Origin: a virus
Lineage: Duplodnaviria > Heunggongvirae > Uroviricota > Caudoviricetes
DNA: 42,699 bases
Virus record (IMG/VR): IMGVR_UViG_2870490042_000003
Direction: 5' to 3' (one strand)
A program made the translations under genes and the position numbers. Positions 1,082-38,208 of the stretch are shown one piece after another (the stretch's first letter is position 1; each line of letters opens with the position of its first letter). Under the pieces are notes generated by a model. It did no database searches. It was not told the DNA's origin and worked only from the letters and a program-made list of their open reading frames with translations.

Positions 1082-1408
1082 ATGACTAAAAATACTCGTT
1101 TTTCCCCCGAAGTCCGTCAACGGGCAGTCCGTATGGTTCTGGAAAGTCAGAGCGAATATGACTCACAATGGGCGACAATTTGTTCCATTGCTCCAAAGAT
1201 TGGCTGTACGCCGGAGACTCTGCGTGTCTGGGTTCGCCAGCATGAGCGGGATACCGGGGGCGGTGATGGAGGGCTCACCACCGCTGAACGTCAGCGTCTG
1301 AAAGAGCTGGAACGTGAAAATCGTGAACTGCGCCGCAGTAACGATATCCTTCGCCAGGCTTCCGCTTATTTTGCGAAGGCGGAGTTCGACCGCCTCTGGA
1401 AAAAATGA
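1082..1408 (+). CDS. IS629 transposase OrfA
   Basis: ATG at 1082 preceded by GAGAAAGAGG; 108 aa; ends in an A6 run (1400-1405, TGGAAAAAATGATG), the likely -1 frameshift site giving OrfAB. Confidence 0.85.
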
Positions 1409-2295
1409 TGCCACTGCTGGATAAGCTGCGTGAGCAGTACGGGGTCGGACCGCTATGCAGCGAACTGCATATTGCCCCGTCAACGTATTACCACTGTCAG
1501 CAACAGCGACATCATCCGGATAAACGCAGTGCCCGTGCGCAGCGCGATGACTGGCTGAAGAAAGAGATACAGCGCGTATACGATGAAAATCACAAGGTAT
1601 ACGGTGTGCGTAAAGTCTGGCGTCAGTTGTTACGGGAAGGTATCAGAGTGGCCAGATGCACTGTGGCACGTCTCATGGCGGTTATGGGACTTGCCGGTGT
1701 TCTCCGGGGTAAAAAGGTCCGTACGACCATCAGCCGGAAAGCCGTTGCCGCAGGCGACCGCGTAAACCGTCAGTTCGTGGCAGAACGACCTGACCAGCTG
1801 TGGGTGGCTGATTTTACTTACGTCAGCACATGGCGGGGCTTCGTCTATGTGGCGTTCATCATTGATGTGTTTGCCGGATACATCGTGGGGTGGCGGGTCT
1901 CATCGTCCATGGAAACGACATTCGTGCTGGATGCACTGGAGCAGGCGTTATGGGCCCGTCGACCGTCCGGCACGGTCCATCACAGTGATAAAGGTTCTCA
2001 GTATGTATCGCTGGCCTACACACAGCGGCTTAAGGAAGCCGGATTACTGGCATCAACAGGAAGTACAGGCGACTCGTATGACAACGCGATGGCGGAGAGC
2101 ATCAATGGTCTTTACAAAGCGGAGGTAATACACCGTAAGAGCTGGAAAAACCGTGCAGAAGTGGAACTGGCCACACTCACGTGGGTGGACTGGTATAACA
2201 ATCGACGATTGCTGGAAAGGCTGGGCCATACTCCTCCGGCAGAAGCAGAAAAAGCTTATTATGCTTCCATCGGAAACGATGATCTGGCAGCCTGA
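1405..2295 (+). CDS. IS629 transposase OrfB (DDE integrase-type catalytic domain)
   Basis: 296-aa ORF in -1 frame relative to orfA; IS3-family transposase-like sequence. Confidence 0.85.
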
Positions 2296-26669: not shown

Positions 26670-26885
26670 TTACTCTCCCCGTGCCGCCTTACGACGGTCC
26701 TCTCTGATTTTGAAATACAGGTTAGTCAGATATGTCAGCAGCCCAAACAGCAGACTCCCCAGCACGCCTATTGCCGCCCACTGAGACGGGGAAACCCTGT
26801 CCAGCAACTGCAGGAACCAGTAGCCCGTTCCCACCGCTGACGTGGTGTATGACACACCTGTTGTGATTTTTTCCATCTGGTCCAT
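26670..26885 (-). CDS. S: Holin, phage 21 S-like pinholin with dual start (MDQM)
   Basis: 71 aa from ATG 26885; …[50 protein letters not shown] resembles S21; the track's ORF extends to an upstream alternative start. Confidence 0.8.
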
Positions 26886-27192
26886 ACCCCGTCTCCCGTT
26901 ATCCGGAAGCTGACAACAATAAAAAAGCCACCAGTTAACTACTGATGGCTCTGATAACTCATGCAAGCGTCTCAGACGATCCACTGACACTACCGGTGAG
27001 TTTAACGATACCTTCCATTTGACTGGCTCACTTTTTATGATGATGCCGGTGTATTTATCTCCAGCACCAGACTTTCTATCTCAACGCCATACGTTGCATT
27101 TTTGGTAATATCCGTCAGCGTCAGTGCATTTAGTCCCACTGCCAGACCGTCTTTTATGGTCTGGAATGCCGGGCCAGTACGATGACGTAGTA

Positions 27193-27381
27193 TCACTCCG
27201 GCTCAGTTGCACCACTGACCACCACATCACCTTCTGCTGCAATCGCCTGCATCAGGGTATAAGGGGTTATGGCCACCGGACTACCAAACGGCTGCCAGCC
27301 CTCTTTCAGTTTATGTGTCAGCTTTTCCGCAAGATCTGACGGCGGCGCCGCCCTGACAACATCATAGTGTTTAAATGCCAT
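27193..27381 (-). CDS. Small conserved lambdoid-phage protein upstream of the holin
   Basis: 62 aa from ATG 27381 (MAFKHYDVVRAAPPSDLAEKL…); position between the Q/tRNA region and the holin. Confidence 0.5.
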   Translation of the reverse strand: MAFKHYDVVRAAPPSDLAEKLTHKLKEGWQPFGSPVAITPYTLMQAIAAEGDVVVSGATEPE

Positions 27382-27641
27382 GGTTCTTTCCACCATCTGA
27401 AAAATAATTCTTTAAAATACCAGACATGTAACACAGAAAAAACACAAAACCATACCTTAAATAGAAACCTGATCATCAAGCAGATATGCATGGATAAACT
27501 ACAAGACGAGATATAAACCACCCTGCATTTAAATAAACAATAAACAACATCAGAAAAATAATTCTGCTCTATGGTTTATATTCAAAAATATCATTTATAC
27601 TTTTCAGAACATCACCAGCAAGGCATAAACAAGGAAGCTAA

Positions 27642-27977
27642 ATGAAGTGGATTGTAATTGATACAGTTATCCAGCCATCATGCGGAATATCTTTTTCAGT
27701 CATATGGAGTAAAGTAAAATTAATAATCTGGTATCAATCGGATGCTTTCTTACCTCCTGAAAGTATATTTACACTGACTCACACAGGTATCATGCTCAAT
27801 AACAAAGTGCTACCTGTAACCATTTACAACGTAGTACCATTCAATAAAACATTCTGGAATTTAATCAAAAACAGCCAGGAATGCCCTACAAATACAGATA
27901 ACGTATTGAATGAATGCTTTAATAACCGTTGCATTCTGCAAATATGTCCTTATGGACTAAAACAACAAAGTCCATAA
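27642..27977 (+). CDS. Hypothetical protein (111 aa) in an AT-rich cargo island, convergent with late transcription
   Basis: ATG 27642 with AAGGAAG SD 4 nt upstream; surrounding 27.40-28.00 kb is markedly AT-rich; no family recognised. Confidence 0.45.
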
Positions 27978-28012
27978 GGAGTTTACTCACATCTGACAAA
28001 ATCAATATAAAC

Positions 28013-28216
28013 AGCCCCTCCGGAGAGGGGCTGGAGAGTGGCGCTATGTGCCATTGCATGGTGCCGGGTGCCTCCCGGTGAATTCAGTACCAGCACCTGA
28101 ATCCGCGATTATCCCATATACCTACTCGCTGATTACCCCTCCGCACAGGGGGATTCACCATGCGAAATTTTTTAACAAACTTCCCGCCGGCCAGACAATA
28201 ATCGCCAGCCTGAATT
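28013..28216. repeat. Copy 1 of a diverged ~205-bp direct repeat beginning with GC-rich hairpin AGCCCCTCCGGAGAGGGGCT
   Basis: Shared blocks with copy 2: AGCCCCTCCGGAGAGGGGCTG, CATGGTGCC..GCCTCCCGGT.AATTCAG, GGGGGATTCACCATGCGA, TTTTTAACAAA, GCCAGACAAT.ATC. Confidence 0.7.
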
Positions 28217-28475
28217 ATGAGCAACGTGGCATTTTACGGGAAAACTGTTTTCTGCAGTAAAAAGGCCCGCCGGAGCGAGCCTGGAAGGATAGCGGTCATG
28301 TGATGCCGGTTTCCCGGTAACTCAGCATCGGTATCTGAGTCAACGTTTTCTCTACTGGGTCATTTCCGATACGTTCCGCCTTCCGGCAGACTTTCATCAC
28401 GTCAGAAAATATAGCACCCTGAGTAACAGGACAGTACTCAGAATTCAGGAAACTGTGACACATCCTGCACAGAAA

Positions 28476-28685
28476 AGCCCCTCCGGAGAGGGGCTGAAGT
28501 ATAGCCTAATTTCTGTCTGTCGCATGGTGCCAGGGGCCTCCCGGTAAATTCAGCCTGTCTACTGAATTTGCATGTTCTCTGGATCATACACTTTGCCAGA
28601 TGCCCCGCCGCTGAGGGGGATTCACCATGCGATGTAATTTTTAACAAATTCTCCGGCAGCCAGACAATCATCAAGCTGTGGAATT
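28476..28685. repeat. Copy 2 of the diverged ~205-bp direct repeat
   Basis: Same conserved blocks as copy 1; the hairpin read on the - strand is followed by TTTTCTGTG. Confidence 0.7.
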
Positions 28686-28867
28686 GTGAGGTATTTAAAA
28701 ATTTCAACGGGTAACTGATACCCTGCTAATCGCCTGATGCTTTCTTTTTCAGCAACGGGAAAGCAACAACCACACACCCGCCACCAAAACACCATCAGAC
28801 AGCACCGACATTATCCGGCTGCTGAAGTCCACCATCACCACCAGAAACAACAGGAGTGCAACCACAG

Positions 28868-28910
28868 CTGCTTAGAAGGCAATTGCTCTGCCCGGCTGAG
28901 CTAACAACGC
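28868..28910 (-). pseudogene. Truncated tRNA-Arg(UCU): 5' half only (acceptor 5' strand, D-arm, anticodon arm)
   Basis: - strand GCGTTGT-TA-GCTC-AGCCGGGCA-GAGC-A-ATTGC-CTTCTAA-GCAGC has tRNA geometry with anticodon TCT, but no T-arm or 3' acceptor strand follows. Confidence 0.55.
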
Positions 28911-29010
28911 TGAATACCGATAATGGACCGCCATCGGGGACCCGCCCCCGCACCAACAACCCTGTTATCGTGTCGTCTGCTCTTCCTGATAAGCTAATGG
29001 CGGTTTGTGA

Positions 29011-29086
29011 TGGTGGCCCTTGCTGGATTTGAACCAGCGACCTGGCGATTATGAGTCGCTCGCTCTCACCACTGAGCTAAAGGGCC
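29011..29086 (-). tRNA. tRNA with CAU anticodon (tRNA-Ile2 ileX/ileZ-like, or Met), encoded CCA
   Basis: 76 nt folded by hand into a canonical cloverleaf: acceptor GGCCCTT/AAGGGCC, D-stem GCTC/GAGC, anticodon loop CT-CAT-AA, T-stem GCTGG/CCAGC, T-loop TTCAAAT, discriminator A, CCA. Confidence 0.85.
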
Positions 29087-29125
29087 GGGAGTAGAATAAT
29101 AACGGTCCGTAACTAATTCCGCAAT

Positions 29126-29149
29126 AAAAAACCCGCTCGGCGGCGGGTT
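29126..29149 (-). terminator. Candidate tR' (late terminator downstream of pR')
   Basis: - strand AACCCGC-CGCCGA-GCGGGTT followed by TTTTTT, about 50 nt downstream of the candidate pR' -10. Confidence 0.55.
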
Positions 29150-29196
29150 GTAGAAACTCTTCTAACGTCAGGCATAAAAAGCCCATTATTATGACG

Positions 29197-29224
29197 AATT
29201 TACCACAGATTCCGGAAAAATCAA
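29197..29224 (-). promoter_or_regulatory. Candidate late promoter pR' (-35 TTGATT, 16-bp spacer, -10 TAAATT)
   Basis: Immediately downstream of the Q stop on the - strand; the -10 TAAATT matches my recollection of lambda pR'. Confidence 0.45.
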
Positions 29225-29229
29225 CCTTG

Positions 29230-30051
29230 TTACCTAGTTACCTTTTTTAACTGCCGCTCAGCCCATGCTTCTTCAATATCAAACCGGGTCACCAGCGCAT
29301 CATAGAATTTCTTAACTGTTTTTTCCCATGACGCGCGTGTTATCTGGTTTGTCACCTCGCATATAGCATTAAATGTCTCCGTTGATGGTAGTCTTTCATA
29401 GCCACGACCACCACAACGCTGGCAGTCTCTGATAACAGGCATACCACGTTTTACCGACTCTTCACGATGAATGGCGACACCACGCCCACGGCAATCCTTA
29501 CAGGCGGTGGAAACCTCACCCTTTCCGCCACACTCCGGACAGGCAACTTTTACCACCTCCCTGACTTTTTTCCATTCTTCCCAGTAAGACGAATACACAC
29601 CTTTCGTACACTTTGCCCATACCGGCGGCTTACCATCCGGATACTGGACCTTGTTTGTAAAAACTACGCTTTCAATAAATTTTTCCCCATAGCAACAAGG
29701 GCACTGCTTTTTACTCGCTGCGCTGCGGGCATAATCCTCAAAAGCGTACGAAGCCATAATGCGCATCACTAACGGTTTTATTTCTGCCGGAAGTTTTCTC
29801 AACGCCGCAACACGATCGCACCGACTGAGTGCATAATCTGCCAGTAATTCTGTTGCCCGCGCCCTGTCATTCATACTGATGCCCATTTTCCCCAGGAACG
29901 CAGAAAACCCCATCTCAGCCCGATTCTGTGTCATGCCCTGCGCGGCCATCACATCAGTGATACTCAGCGCATCTTTTGACGTTGAGGCCGATGCATCGGT
30001 CAGGCCAGGGGATTTTGGGGAGTAGTATTTCGGTAAATCTTCCAGTTTCAT
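29230..30051 (-). CDS. Antitermination protein Q (QuuQ-like, zinc-binding Cys clusters)
   Basis: 273 aa; MKLEDLPKYYSPKSP… N-terminus and CxxC clusters (CPCCYG, CPECGG, CKDCRG, CQRCGG); ATGA overlap with rusA; followed by pR'/tR'/tRNA. Confidence 0.75.
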   Translation of the reverse strand: MKLEDLPKYYSPKSPGLTDASASTSKDALSITDVMAAQGMTQNRAEMGFSAFLGKMGISMNDRARATELLADYALSRCDRVAALRKLPAEIKPLVMRIMASYAFEDYARSAASKKQCPCCYGEKFIESVVFTNKVQYPDGKPPVWAKCTKGVYSSYWEEWKKVREVVKVACPECGGKGEVSTACKDCRGRGVAIHREESVKRGMPVIRDCQRCGGRGYERLPSTETFNAICEVTNQITRASWEKTVKKFYDALVTRFDIEEAWAERQLKKVTR

Positions 30052-31934: not shown

Positions 31935-32090
31935 TTACTCCTCAGGTTCGTAAGCTGTGAAGACAGCGACCTCCGTCTGGCCGGTTCGGATTCGTACCTC
32001 GCAGAGGTCTTTCCTCGTTACCAGTGCCGTCACAATGACGGTTAAACAGATGACGATCAGGGCGATTAACATCGCCTTTTGCTGCTTCAT
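31935..32090 (-). CDS. hok: Hok/Gef-family type I toxin (HokD/RelF-like)
   Basis: 51 aa MKQQKAMLIALIVICLTVIVTALVTRKDLCEVRIRTGQTEVAVFTAYEPEE; an in-frame upstream ATG at 32147 would give a 70-aa form. Confidence 0.85.
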   Translation of the reverse strand: MKQQKAMLIALIVICLTVIVTALVTRKDLCEVRIRTGQTEVAVFTAYEPEE

Positions 32091-32349
32091 AGCCTGCTTC
32101 TCCTTGCCTTTCGGCACGTAAGAGGCTAACCTAGATTTGCCGTTCATAGATTGAGCCTCAGATTAATGTTAAGCGTCTTGCAGGACGCGTAATGTTAACT
32201 GGGGCTTTTCTCTATCTGCCTTTTGGTGTTCATGCCTGAGACAGATAGCCTCAAGCACCCGCAGTCATTCTACTTAACTAAGATTTCCCCGCAAACCGTT
32301 TTTGTCCGGCACAGTAAATATCCAACTAAACCAATGGCGTTCGCTGTAT

Positions 32350-37801: not shown

Positions 37802-38208
37802 TAGATAACCAACGAAGCTAAGGTTGGTAATTAAGGAGTTCTCCACGGGTGAGGTGGAGTGCGTGCGCCGGACACGGGTGAGCATCCGGCACTGACAGTT
37901 TACTGAAAGGATATTTCCCTGAAAAGTCAGACCATAACGCGAAAGCGCACGGCGAGGTAGCTGGTTCATAGATAGCCTGTCGTTAAATTTTCGTCGACCG
38001 TGCGCTTCCGGTTGTGGCAATCCGCGAAATGGCGCGGCGGTAAGTATGGCGGGGTTATTCCTTCCCCCGTTGAGGACACCGGGTTGTCAGGTTGACCATA
38101 CGCTTAAGTGACAACCCCACTGCAACGCCCTCTGTTATCAATTTTCTGGTGACGTTTGGCGGTATCAGTTTTACTCCGTGACTGCTCTGCCGCCCTTTTT
38201 AAAGTGAA

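Follow-up and report, generated by a model that had tools for sequence, protein, structure and literature searches.

A truncated tRNA-Arg gene as a probable deletion scar in the cargo region of a potC-adjacent lambdoid Escherichia coli prophage

The region at positions 27400 to 29229 of the DNA analyzed here (a stretch of 42,699 nucleotides, hereafter referred to as the window) is the late-operon cargo ("moron") segment of a complete lambdoid Escherichia coli prophage located next to potC, and it reads on the minus strand. We propose, with a probability of roughly 0.88, that it is a lambdoid cargo locus whose tRNA array was scarred by a single deletion of about 0.65 kb, that the scarred module subsequently spread, and that iraL and STnc100 cargo was retained. 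Between Q and the lysis genes lie one intact tRNA gene, two dead tRNA relics, the deletion scar, iraL, and STnc100 sRNA genes. The order on the minus strand is Q, a candidate pR' promoter, a tR' terminator, and a three-slot tRNA array in which only ileZ is intact, followed by a tciB remnant, two STnc100 genes plus a degenerate copy, iraL on the opposite strand, a gutted nanS-p gene, and the lysis cassette. Gene content and alignments bear out the initial annotation of this sequence, which had seen here the cargo region that separates Q from the holin gene in a lambdoid prophage. The further view that the locus had been remodeled stands insofar as argO is cut and the layout is derived, but the locus has not been emptied, as iraL and two or three STnc100 genes remain. 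The layout is an ordinary one, since about 6% of complete E. coli genomes share it, and it represents routine lambdoid mosaicism in a locus that is already annotated.

The gene at 29230 to 30051 (minus strand) encodes a late antiterminator Q of 273 aa that belongs to Pfam family PF03589, Antitermination protein Q (E = 1.2e-54; 182.8 bits versus a gathering score of 26.7), and is labeled "antitermination protein" in RefSeq. The candidate pR' (29197 to 29224, minus strand) consists of a -35 element, TTGATT (29224 to 29219), a 16-nt spacer, and a TGn-extended -10 element, TAAATT (29202 to 29197). The motif is thus present as initially proposed, but it is weak, matching 8 of 12 consensus positions and scoring under the listing threshold of the promoter scan; a pR' function is plausible from where it lies, past the Q stop codon and ahead of the terminator. 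The tR'-like intrinsic terminator that had been noted downstream of Q was recovered by the terminator scan at 29123 to 29149 (minus strand), with a hairpin at 29149 to 29130 (a 7-bp stem with five GC pairs, then TTTTTATT) and a T-run to 29123. A leader RNA ending there would be about 67 nt long. In the alignments, the Q module ceases to match other prophages at this terminator (29122 to 29125).

The intact member of the tRNA array is an ileZ-type gene with a CAU anticodon (29011 to 29086, minus strand; 76 nt including CCA). ARAGORN and the Rfam tRNA model (RF00005; 72.5 bits versus a threshold of 29) agree with the original call of a canonical tRNA, which has a complete cloverleaf with a CCA end and is identical across four aligned sequences except for one substitution in phiP27. 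It is designated tRNA-Ile by RefSeq/PGAP and, by anticodon, Met by ARAGORN. The acceptor stem carries C4-G69 and C5-G68 pairs, which we take to be TilS determinants. On the basis of the RefSeq label and of knowledge of ileX-type tRNAs, we regard it as a putative isoleucine tRNA reading AUA. A candidate tRNA promoter at 29096 to 29124 (minus strand; TTGCGG, a 17-nt spacer, and TATTAT) has a -10 element that stops 10 nt short of the tRNA 5' end. A feature of phage 24B annotated as "pT; putative tRNA promoter" is laid out identically, and the position and motif of the site in the window suggest that it may drive the tRNA gene. Codon usage was considered as a reason for the retention of ileZ and the loss of argO and was set aside as not discriminating: ATA, AGA, AGG, and CGA all occur at 5.6 to 8.1 per 1,000 codons in 45 prophage coding sequences.

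Over positions 29126 to 28869, the ileZ-argN-argO module is 86 to 92% identical to those of phiP27, Lahn2, and PhiR49_2, in keeping with the resemblance to Stx-converting phages that had been pointed out initially; in the window, ileZ is the only intact gene of the three. Between ileZ and the argO remnant sits a decayed argN relic, psi-argN (28924 to 29003, minus strand), recognized from its fold and from alignments with the argN genes of Lahn2, PhiR49_2, and L009. It keeps the acceptor, D, and T stems, carries a 9-bp hairpin with a 3-nt loop in place of the anticodon arm, and has a mutated T-loop. As it has no canonical 7-nt anticodon loop and received no call from ARAGORN or Rfam, it does not qualify as a tRNA-Arg(UCG) argN gene.

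The scar itself lies in argO. The remnant at 28869 to 28910 (minus strand) aligns with nt 1 to 42 of the tRNA-Arg(UCU) gene argO from phiP27, Lahn2, PhiR49_2, mEp460_ev081, and E. coli 042, and comprises the acceptor 5' strand, the D arm, the anticodon loop, and 3 nt on the 3' side of the anticodon stem. The match to the phiP27, 042, mEp460_ev081, and CFT073 loci stops at 28869, and three-way alignments of the window, argO, and the tciB genes of JLK-2012, Evi, and DS566-2 place a nonhomologous junction without microhomology between A28869 and G28868. Five argO-bearing and three tciB-bearing loci fix this breakpoint to the base, within 1 nt of the site near 28868 at which the UCU tRNA had been said to stop after its anticodon arm. 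We also considered, and rejected, an intact but unusual tRNA at this site. The fragment received no ARAGORN call and no Rfam tRNA match at E ≤ 1, no T-loop motif occurs downstream of it, and the 35-nt 3' half of argO is absent from the whole 42.7-kb window with 6 mismatches allowed; the sole 7/7 partner of the 7-mer tested, which was shifted by 2 nt relative to the true acceptor strand, lies about 100 nt downstream.

The DNA beyond the break had been described as unrelated; it is in fact tciB from codon 7 on. This tciB (DUF3927) remnant (28749 to 28868, minus strand) shows 95% DNA identity to tciB of phage JLK-2012 and matches PF13064 with 42.6 bits. It is not a full-length TciB/DUF3927 open reading frame downstream of tciA: the start codon and the first six codons are gone, close to the 3' end the loss of a single nucleotide causes a frameshift, with tblastn matches falling in two frames, and tblastn detected no tciA remnant in the window. 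Because the break lies inside argO at one end and inside tciB at the other, we interpret it as a deletion scar of about 0.65 kb. Relative to related loci, the missing sequence includes the 3' half of argO, the spacer, tciA, and the first six tciB codons, a span of 654 nt as measured on DS566-2. The earlier suggestion of a recombination breakpoint exactly at the classic cargo insertion site therefore holds for the presence of a true nonhomologous break but not for its placement, one end being 35 nt inside argO and the other inside tciB. Undeleted relatives with an intact argO followed by tciA/tciB include phage Evi, DS566-2, O157 86-24, and RM9088, with tciA following argO in the last two. As judged from these alignments, in which relatives keep argO-tciA-tciB, the layout is derived and not ancestral. 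A single illegitimate deletion would have joined argO to codon 7 of tciB, and homologous recombination via the conserved flanks would then have carried the fused module from one E. coli prophage to another.

The distribution of the junction is consistent with such a history. With a 141-nt probe across the junction, covered at at least 80%, the identical junction was found in 320 of 5,426 complete E. coli genomes, and at an identity of at least 99% in 258 genomes. It occurs in at least two phage backgrounds; strains 190693 and AST198 carry the same junction but have an intact argN and an upstream methyltransferase gene. Four phage depositions (vB_EcoS-...) also contain the whole 1.83-kb region at 99.9% identity, which implies that their authors recovered it as phage DNA. 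The identity of the junction across genomes, backgrounds, and phage records points to a single, old illegitimate deletion that recombination then disseminated. At least 80% of the 1.83-kb query is covered in 669 genomes versus the 320 with the junction, a gap that is probably due to 042- and CFT073-type loci that share both flanks and yet keep argO; roughly 950 loci have an intact argO. No progenitor with both flanks near-identical and an intact argO-tciA-tciB segment was present among the sampled matches, so the event could have been an illegitimate recombination of two different phages and not an intramolecular deletion; the closest right-hand relatives are 78 to 95% identical to the window. 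What sets the window apart from E. coli 042 and CFT073 is a replaced segment of 648 nt and not a simple deletion, and on this comparative evidence the history of the locus has more than one step.

Downstream of the tciB remnant, STnc100 copy A (28467 to 28660; Rfam RF02076, 138 bits; intrinsic terminator at 28495 to 28476) and copy B (28003 to 28191; 132.5 bits; terminator at 28033 to 28012), both on the minus strand, span positions 1 to 206 of the model and exceed its gathering score of 47. The STnc100-like copy between them (28256 to 28431, minus strand; 30 bits, E = 4.5e-4; terminator hairpin at 28282 to 28263) is degenerate and scores below that value. Copy B sits in a block that is 97 to 98% identical to the E. 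coli 042 and CFT073 loci, each of which has one STnc100-type copy there. In 9 of 10 comparator loci, STnc100 forms the right edge of the cargo slot, irrespective of whether that slot contains stx2, tciAB, or nothing. According to work cited in PMC12711010, the stx2-linked copy (EcOnc27/sRNA103) is a discrete Hfq-binding RNA; position and motif suggest that the alleles in the window may likewise be expressed.

The iraL cassette (27400 to 27977, plus strand) contains a 111-aa open reading frame (27642 to 27977) preceded by an AT-rich region (27 to 36% GC) with a promoter-like site at 27534 to 27562 in the promoter scan; the gene uses five ATA codons and no AGA or AGG. Its product matches the IraM family over its full length (NCBIfam NF007393; 162 bits versus a cutoff of 121) and is identical at 109 of 111 residues to that of the one IraM-family gene detected in the potC-adjacent prophage of CFT073, which identifies it with the characterized IraL and not with K-12 IraM. 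That CFT073 gene was named iraL and placed on the potB genomic island by Hryckowian et al. (2014; PMC4045071), and IraL of CFT073 and Shigella sonnei binds RssB and stabilizes RpoS, in CFT073 in log phase (PMC4045071). Without iraL, the RpoS half-life in CFT073 falls from about 5 to about 2.5 min. Given 98% identity, the IraL encoded in the window probably does the same. Next come the nanS-p remnants (27035 to 27396, minus strand; DUF1737 plus sialate esterase), detected by Pfam and blastn and annotated as partial in RefSeq. They show an internal deletion of about 1.5 kb: tblastn with NanS-p of JLK-2012 matched aa 1 to 74 at 27381 to 27160 and aa 572 to 617 at 27175 to 27038. A strong hairpin terminator (26952 to 26924) and a class II holin gene (together 26670 to 26952, minus strand; terminator scan, Pfam Phage_holin_2_1, and RefSeq) follow, the latter marking the start of the lysis cassette. 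The argN relic, the STnc100 genes, iraL, and the internal nanS-p deletion had all been overlooked initially.

Both strands of 26900 to 29400 contain 13 terminator-like sites in the terminator scan, versus 2.2 ± 1.6 in shuffled sequences. Between pR' and the holin gene, Q-modified RNA polymerase would have to pass five minus-strand terminator-like hairpins to reach the lysis and morphogenesis genes. In a lysogen, ileZ and iraL would be expressed from their own promoters, and the sRNAs possibly likewise, whereas the argO and tciB fragments are presumably dead.

Other explanations of the truncated argO concern where its missing half went and what the slot once held. Foreign DNA, either a cargo cassette or an integrating element, might have inserted into the anticodon arm of argO and left the 3' half elsewhere. 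The break does fall at the anticodon stem, and tRNA genes are common integration targets. However, the 3' half is absent from the window even with 6 mismatches allowed, which largely refutes an insertion; moreover, the sequence across the break comes from within tciB, a gene located about 0.6 kb past an intact argO in relatives, and both flanking direct repeats and a nearby integrase are lacking. We reject insertion as extremely improbable. That the locus belonged to a former Stx-converting phage, with stxAB lost through this same deletion, is also highly improbable. Such an origin could draw on the 86 to 92% identity of the tRNA module to Stx phages, including phiP27 with stx2e after argO, and on the position of STnc100 just downstream of stx2B in Stx2 phages (PMC12370729). 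Against it, no stx remnant was found: tblastn with Stx2e A and B gave only chance matches (E ≥ 0.46), in agreement with the initial statement that toxin genes are absent, and the stxA and stxB genes that an Stx cargo locus would have between the tRNA array and STnc100/nanS-p are missing. In addition, Q here is a 273-aa PF03589 protein, whereas Q of phage 24B is PF06530 according to its annotation, and many non-Stx prophages share the tRNA module with tciAB or an empty slot. The fusion of argO to tciB implies that the slot held tciAB when the deletion happened; nothing indicates that stx was ever present, and the cargo lost was tciA/tciB.

A different type of alternative is that the argO 5' fragment or psi-argN has been kept for a function of its own, such as that of a regulatory RNA resembling a tRNA half, a signal for RNase P/E processing of the ileZ transcript, or an anticodon-nuclease decoy. 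The junction persists at an identity of at least 99% in 258 genomes, eight loci in distant prophages show almost no variation in the replaced segment of psi-argN (one copy being annotated tRNA-OTHER), and the fold of psi-argN retains the acceptor, D, and T stems. Yet recent spread by recombination predicts low divergence equally well, so near-invariance, which offers no covariation as a test of function, does not separate the two; the T-loop of psi-argN is further mutated in the window, and the tciB frameshift fits neutral decay. We consider such retention very unlikely. An extended version, to which we give similarly little credence, holds that the flanking RNA genes are portable homology anchors for cargo swaps and that the argO fragment and psi-argN yield a functional, stable tRNA-like RNA instead of hitchhiking. 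In this version, the tRNA array on the left and STnc100 on the right would anchor the exchange of stx, tciAB, and iraL cassettes, and the RNA, whose source segments persist in about 6% of E. coli genomes, might act in ileZ-transcript processing, as a decoy, or as a tRNA-half regulator.

Under the favored reading, a deletion within a tciAB-bearing slot followed by spread of the scarred module, the result matters little beyond correct annotation. The region is a nontoxigenic relative of the Stx cargo locus, with iraL, which stabilizes RpoS, and STnc100-type sRNAs as its conversion cargo. The truncated argO is a dated deletion scar that can be used as a lineage marker for one recombining module carried by about 6% of complete E. 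coli genomes, and the slot between the tRNA array and STnc100, which holds stx2, tciAB, or nothing depending on the phage, provides context for the gain and loss of Stx cargo.

Among known systems, the iraL locus of CFT073, in a prophage adjacent to potC (the "potB genomic island"), shares the neighbors lolE, nagK, cobB, potD, potC, and integrase, and is 97.4% identical in DNA over 28220 to 26326. It has the same order of an 822-nt Q, the tRNA array, a DUF3927 gene, an STnc100-type copy, iraL on the opposite strand, a truncated DUF1737 gene, and a class II holin gene. It differs in having three intact tRNAs, an IS200 between Q and ileZ, and a 132-nt DUF3927 gene, whereas the window carries the psi-argN relic, joins its truncated argO to another tciB allele, and contains an extra STnc100 plus a degenerate copy. 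Phage JLK-2012 has a tciB 95% identical to the remnant in the window; phage Evi has the same Q type followed by ileZ, tRNA-Lys, argO, tciA, tciB, and STnc100; and the DS566-2 prophage has the full array with tciA and tciB and shares with the window the order tciB, STnc100, degenerate copy, and second STnc100. In these three, argO (or other tRNAs), tciA, and full tciB are intact, and in the window they are deleted or truncated. The Stx phages 24B, phiP27, and Lahn2 resemble the window in having a homologous tRNA module downstream of the late terminator, STnc100 and nanS-p as the right boundary of the cargo slot, and the lysis cassette thereafter, but in the window argO is truncated, nanS-p is gutted, and stx is absent; iraL holds the position and orientation of AsxR in Stx2 phages. 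Finally, the STnc100/EcOnc27/PasD family of Hfq-binding prophage sRNAs is likewise described as lying downstream of Q (PF03589) and ahead of the esterase and holin genes, and relative to the published family the window is distinguished by three tandem copies, one of them degenerate.

The window holds a complete lambdoid prophage with its early and late operons on the minus strand, placed beside potC/potD in a RefSeq genome whose copy of the 1.83-kb region between Q and the lysis cassette (27400-29229) is 100% identical. Gene order runs from integrase through exo, dicB, a repressor/cro pair, replication genes, hokD/sok, DUF968 and rusA to Q (30051-29230, minus strand), which bounds the region upstream, and continues past it with holin, lysozyme, Rz, iss/bor, terminase, and HK97-type head and tail genes. 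Two RNAs typical of Qin/Rac-like prophages were also found, a Sok antitoxin RNA (32085-32260, minus strand; 112 bits) adjoining the hokD-type toxin ORF and a DicF sRNA (38144-38195, plus strand; 76.7 bits) in the early region near dicB. At the tail-fibre end, the stretch 1363-2295 (plus strand) holds an ALIL pseudoknot (Rfam RF01497, 120 bits) overlapping the start of a 296-aa ORF (1405-2295), which indicates an IS3-family insertion sequence.

Immediately downstream of Q, the pR' motif proposed in the initial annotation is present as TTGATT (29224-29219), a 16-nt spacer and TAAATT (29202-29197), but only 8 of its 12 positions agree with the consensus and the promoter scan did not list it. Its TGn extended -10 and its place between the Q stop codon and a terminator make it a plausible candidate. 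The tR'-like terminator is solid, with a hairpin at 29149-29130 and a T-run reaching 29123. ARAGORN likewise bore out the intact CAU tRNA, the only tRNA it found in the window (29011-29086, minus strand, 76 nt; 72.5 bits with the Rfam tRNA model); this ileZ-type gene is labelled tRNA-Ile in RefSeq. Directly upstream lies a candidate ileZ promoter (TTGCGG-17-TATTAT, 29124-29096, minus strand), whose geometry is shared by the annotated "pT" feature of phage 24B.

The last tRNA gene of the array, argO (UCU), is broken. Its first 42 nt (28910-28869) match argO of phiP27, Lahn2, PhiR49_2, mEp460_ev081 and Escherichia coli 042 base for base, and similarity ends between A28869 and G28868, within one base of where the initial annotation had placed the truncation. 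No partner fitting the cloverleaf was found in the downstream sequence, and the 35-nt 3' half of argO has no match anywhere in the window even with six mismatches permitted. The sequence beyond the break had been described as unrelated DNA; instead, it is tciB, 95% identical to that of phage JLK-2012 and entered at codon 7. It translates as AVVALLLFLVVMVDFSSRIMSVL..., corresponding to TciB residues 8 onward, until a 1-nt deletion close to the 3' end throws it out of frame; Pfam finds DUF3927 in it, and RefSeq calls a 38-aa "DUF3927 family protein" there from an internal GTG start. In relatives such as phage Evi, strain DS566-2, O157 86-24 and RM9088, argO is intact and leads into a ~170-nt spacer, the TerB-family gene tciA (432 nt) and full tciB. 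With DS566-2 as the measure, the stretch lost from the window between argO nt 42 and tciB codon 7 is 654 nt long. This loss, the tciB interior directly after the break and the lack of microhomology at the junction in the alignments together mark the event as illegitimate, either a deletion or an equivalent recombination, which cut into both the last tRNA gene and a cargo gene. The initial annotation was correct in substance in reading a breakpoint here, but the event was no clean swap at the slot edge, as the cut lies inside argO and tciB.

Two other histories were considered. Insertion of foreign DNA into argO would also interrupt the gene, but it is excluded with near certainty: the window lacks the 3' half, and the break runs straight into tciB interior. 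That the locus formerly carried stx is highly improbable: the window contains no stx remnants, the cargo adjoining the break is tciB, and Q, of the 822-nt type shared with Evi, belongs to a family unlike that of phage 24B.

Between ileZ and the argO fragment we identified a further relic, overlooked initially, of the middle tRNA gene (psi-argN, 29003-28924, minus strand). Over the acceptor, D and T stems it can be aligned with argN (UCG) from Lahn2, PhiR49_2 and strain 190693, whereas its anticodon arm has been swapped for a 9-bp hairpin closed by a 3-nt loop; the window copy also has a mutated T-loop. The replaced segment is near-invariant in phiP27, mEp460_ev081, E. coli 042, O157 strain 86-24 and RM9088, whose better-preserved copy is labelled "tRNA-OTHER" by PGAP. 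The tRNA module holding psi-argN occurs in up to 7 to 8 places per O157 genome. In Evi a tRNA-Lys (UUU) takes the place of psi-argN; hence, the middle slot is itself variable. Both argN and argO are therefore dead as tRNA genes in the window. It is very unlikely that the two relics have a function of their own: persistence, the only point in favor, is equally well explained by recent recombinational spread, and the copies vary too little to provide covariation by which psi-argN function could be judged. Codon usage (ATA, AGA, AGG and CGA each at 5.6 to 8.1 per 1,000 codons) offers no rare-codon ground for ileZ having been kept and argO lost.

The deletion scar is widespread. A 141-nt junction-centred probe had ≥80% coverage in 320 of the 5,426 complete E. 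coli genomes, with 258 records at ≥99% identity, and a 541-nt probe found ~950 further genomes whose halves lie 0.5 to 0.65 kb apart with an intact argO in between. The identical junction also occurs in another left-hand context in strains 190693 and AST198 (locus positions ~2530-2575), where Q is followed by a hypothetical gene, a DNA methyltransferase, ileZ, intact argN, the argO fragment-tciB fusion, the same STnc100 copies, iraL and full-length nanS-p. In these strains the scarred module has thus moved by recombination into the background of another phage, and sharing of one breakpoint by at least two backgrounds indicates that the junction is a single old event carried by homologous recombination. 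The initial annotation had raised the alternative that the layout is ancestral; it is derived, because a 42-nt tRNA stub joined to a start-less gene cannot be ancestral. Four phage-deposited records (vB_EcoS-640R1 and relatives), recovered as phage DNA by their authors, carry the region at 99.9% identity, which suggests that the scar does not cripple the phage. Further, a 648-nt segment (28868-28221) containing the tciB remnant, STnc100-A and a degenerate STnc100 copy stands in place of a 702-nt segment of 042 and CFT073 comprising the argO 3' half, spacer, a 132-nt DUF3927 gene and sequence up to STnc100. The history therefore had several steps, as expected for lambdoid mosaics.

The region has not been emptied, as it retains iraL and STnc100 sRNAs, both already known. 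STnc100, a known prophage sRNA family, is represented by two full-length copies on the minus strand, A (28660-28467; Rfam 138 bits) and B (28191-28003; 132.5 bits), both above the gathering score of 47, with a degenerate copy between them (28431-28256, minus strand; 30 bits, below threshold). Each of the three ends in an intrinsic terminator. DS566-2 has a matching three-unit arrangement at 78% identity; thus, the triplication is old. The family has been tied to PasD in a 2026 preprint, and the degenerate copy might be a PasD-type relative. In Stx2 phages, an STnc100 copy lies 75 nt downstream of stx2B, overlapping the Hfq-binding sRNA EcOnc27/sRNA103. The opposite strand carries iraL, a 111-aa ORF (27642-27977, plus strand; 162 bits with the NCBIfam IraM model, cutoff 121) within an AT-rich island (GC 27 to 36%). 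Beyond it, nanS-p, normally a ~1.85-kb DUF1737 plus sialate O-acetylesterase gene, survives as two small ORFs of 67 and 53 aa (27035-27396, minus strand), corresponding to aa 1-74 (27381-27160) and 572-617 (27175-27038) of the JLK-2012 protein, with an internal deletion of ~1.5 kb. A strong 12-bp hairpin with a T-run (26924-26952, minus strand) precedes the RefSeq holin start (26885) by ~40 nt; the Pas sRNA preprint gives this position, next to the holin-lysozyme genes, for the PasA/PasC sRNAs.

From established lambdoid biology, Q would load onto RNA polymerase at the candidate pR', and the modified polymerase would continue past tR' and the sRNA terminators into the lysis and morphogenesis genes. 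Counted over both strands of 26900-29400, there are 13 terminator-like sites, compared with 2.2 ± 1.6 in shuffles. ileZ may also be transcribed from its own candidate promoter, and iraL, driven by its own promoter in the lysogen, could raise RpoS levels. The CFT073 gene was given the name iraL by Hryckowian et al. [quoted passage not shown]

The feature amounts to a deletion scar, and the E. coli prophage late regions in which it lies form a class with many members that has been annotated before. In 9 of 10 comparator loci, STnc100 forms the right edge of the cargo slot. The slot carries stx2 in 24B and tciAB in JLK-2012, Evi and DS566-2, whereas phi296 and PhiR49_2 have nothing in it. From 28220 up to and including the holin region, CFT073 and 042 share 97 to 98% identity with the window, and the IraM-family gene at the equivalent place in the CFT073 potC-side prophage matches the window IraL at 109 of 111 aa. 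In the Stx2 phages, as seen in 24B (locus L015, 3971-4023, minus strand), and also in DS566-2 (locus L012, 4291-4343, minus strand), STnc100 is followed at once by the anti-sRNA AsxR on the other strand, and the window carries its iraL cassette (27400-27977, plus strand) in that same position and orientation.
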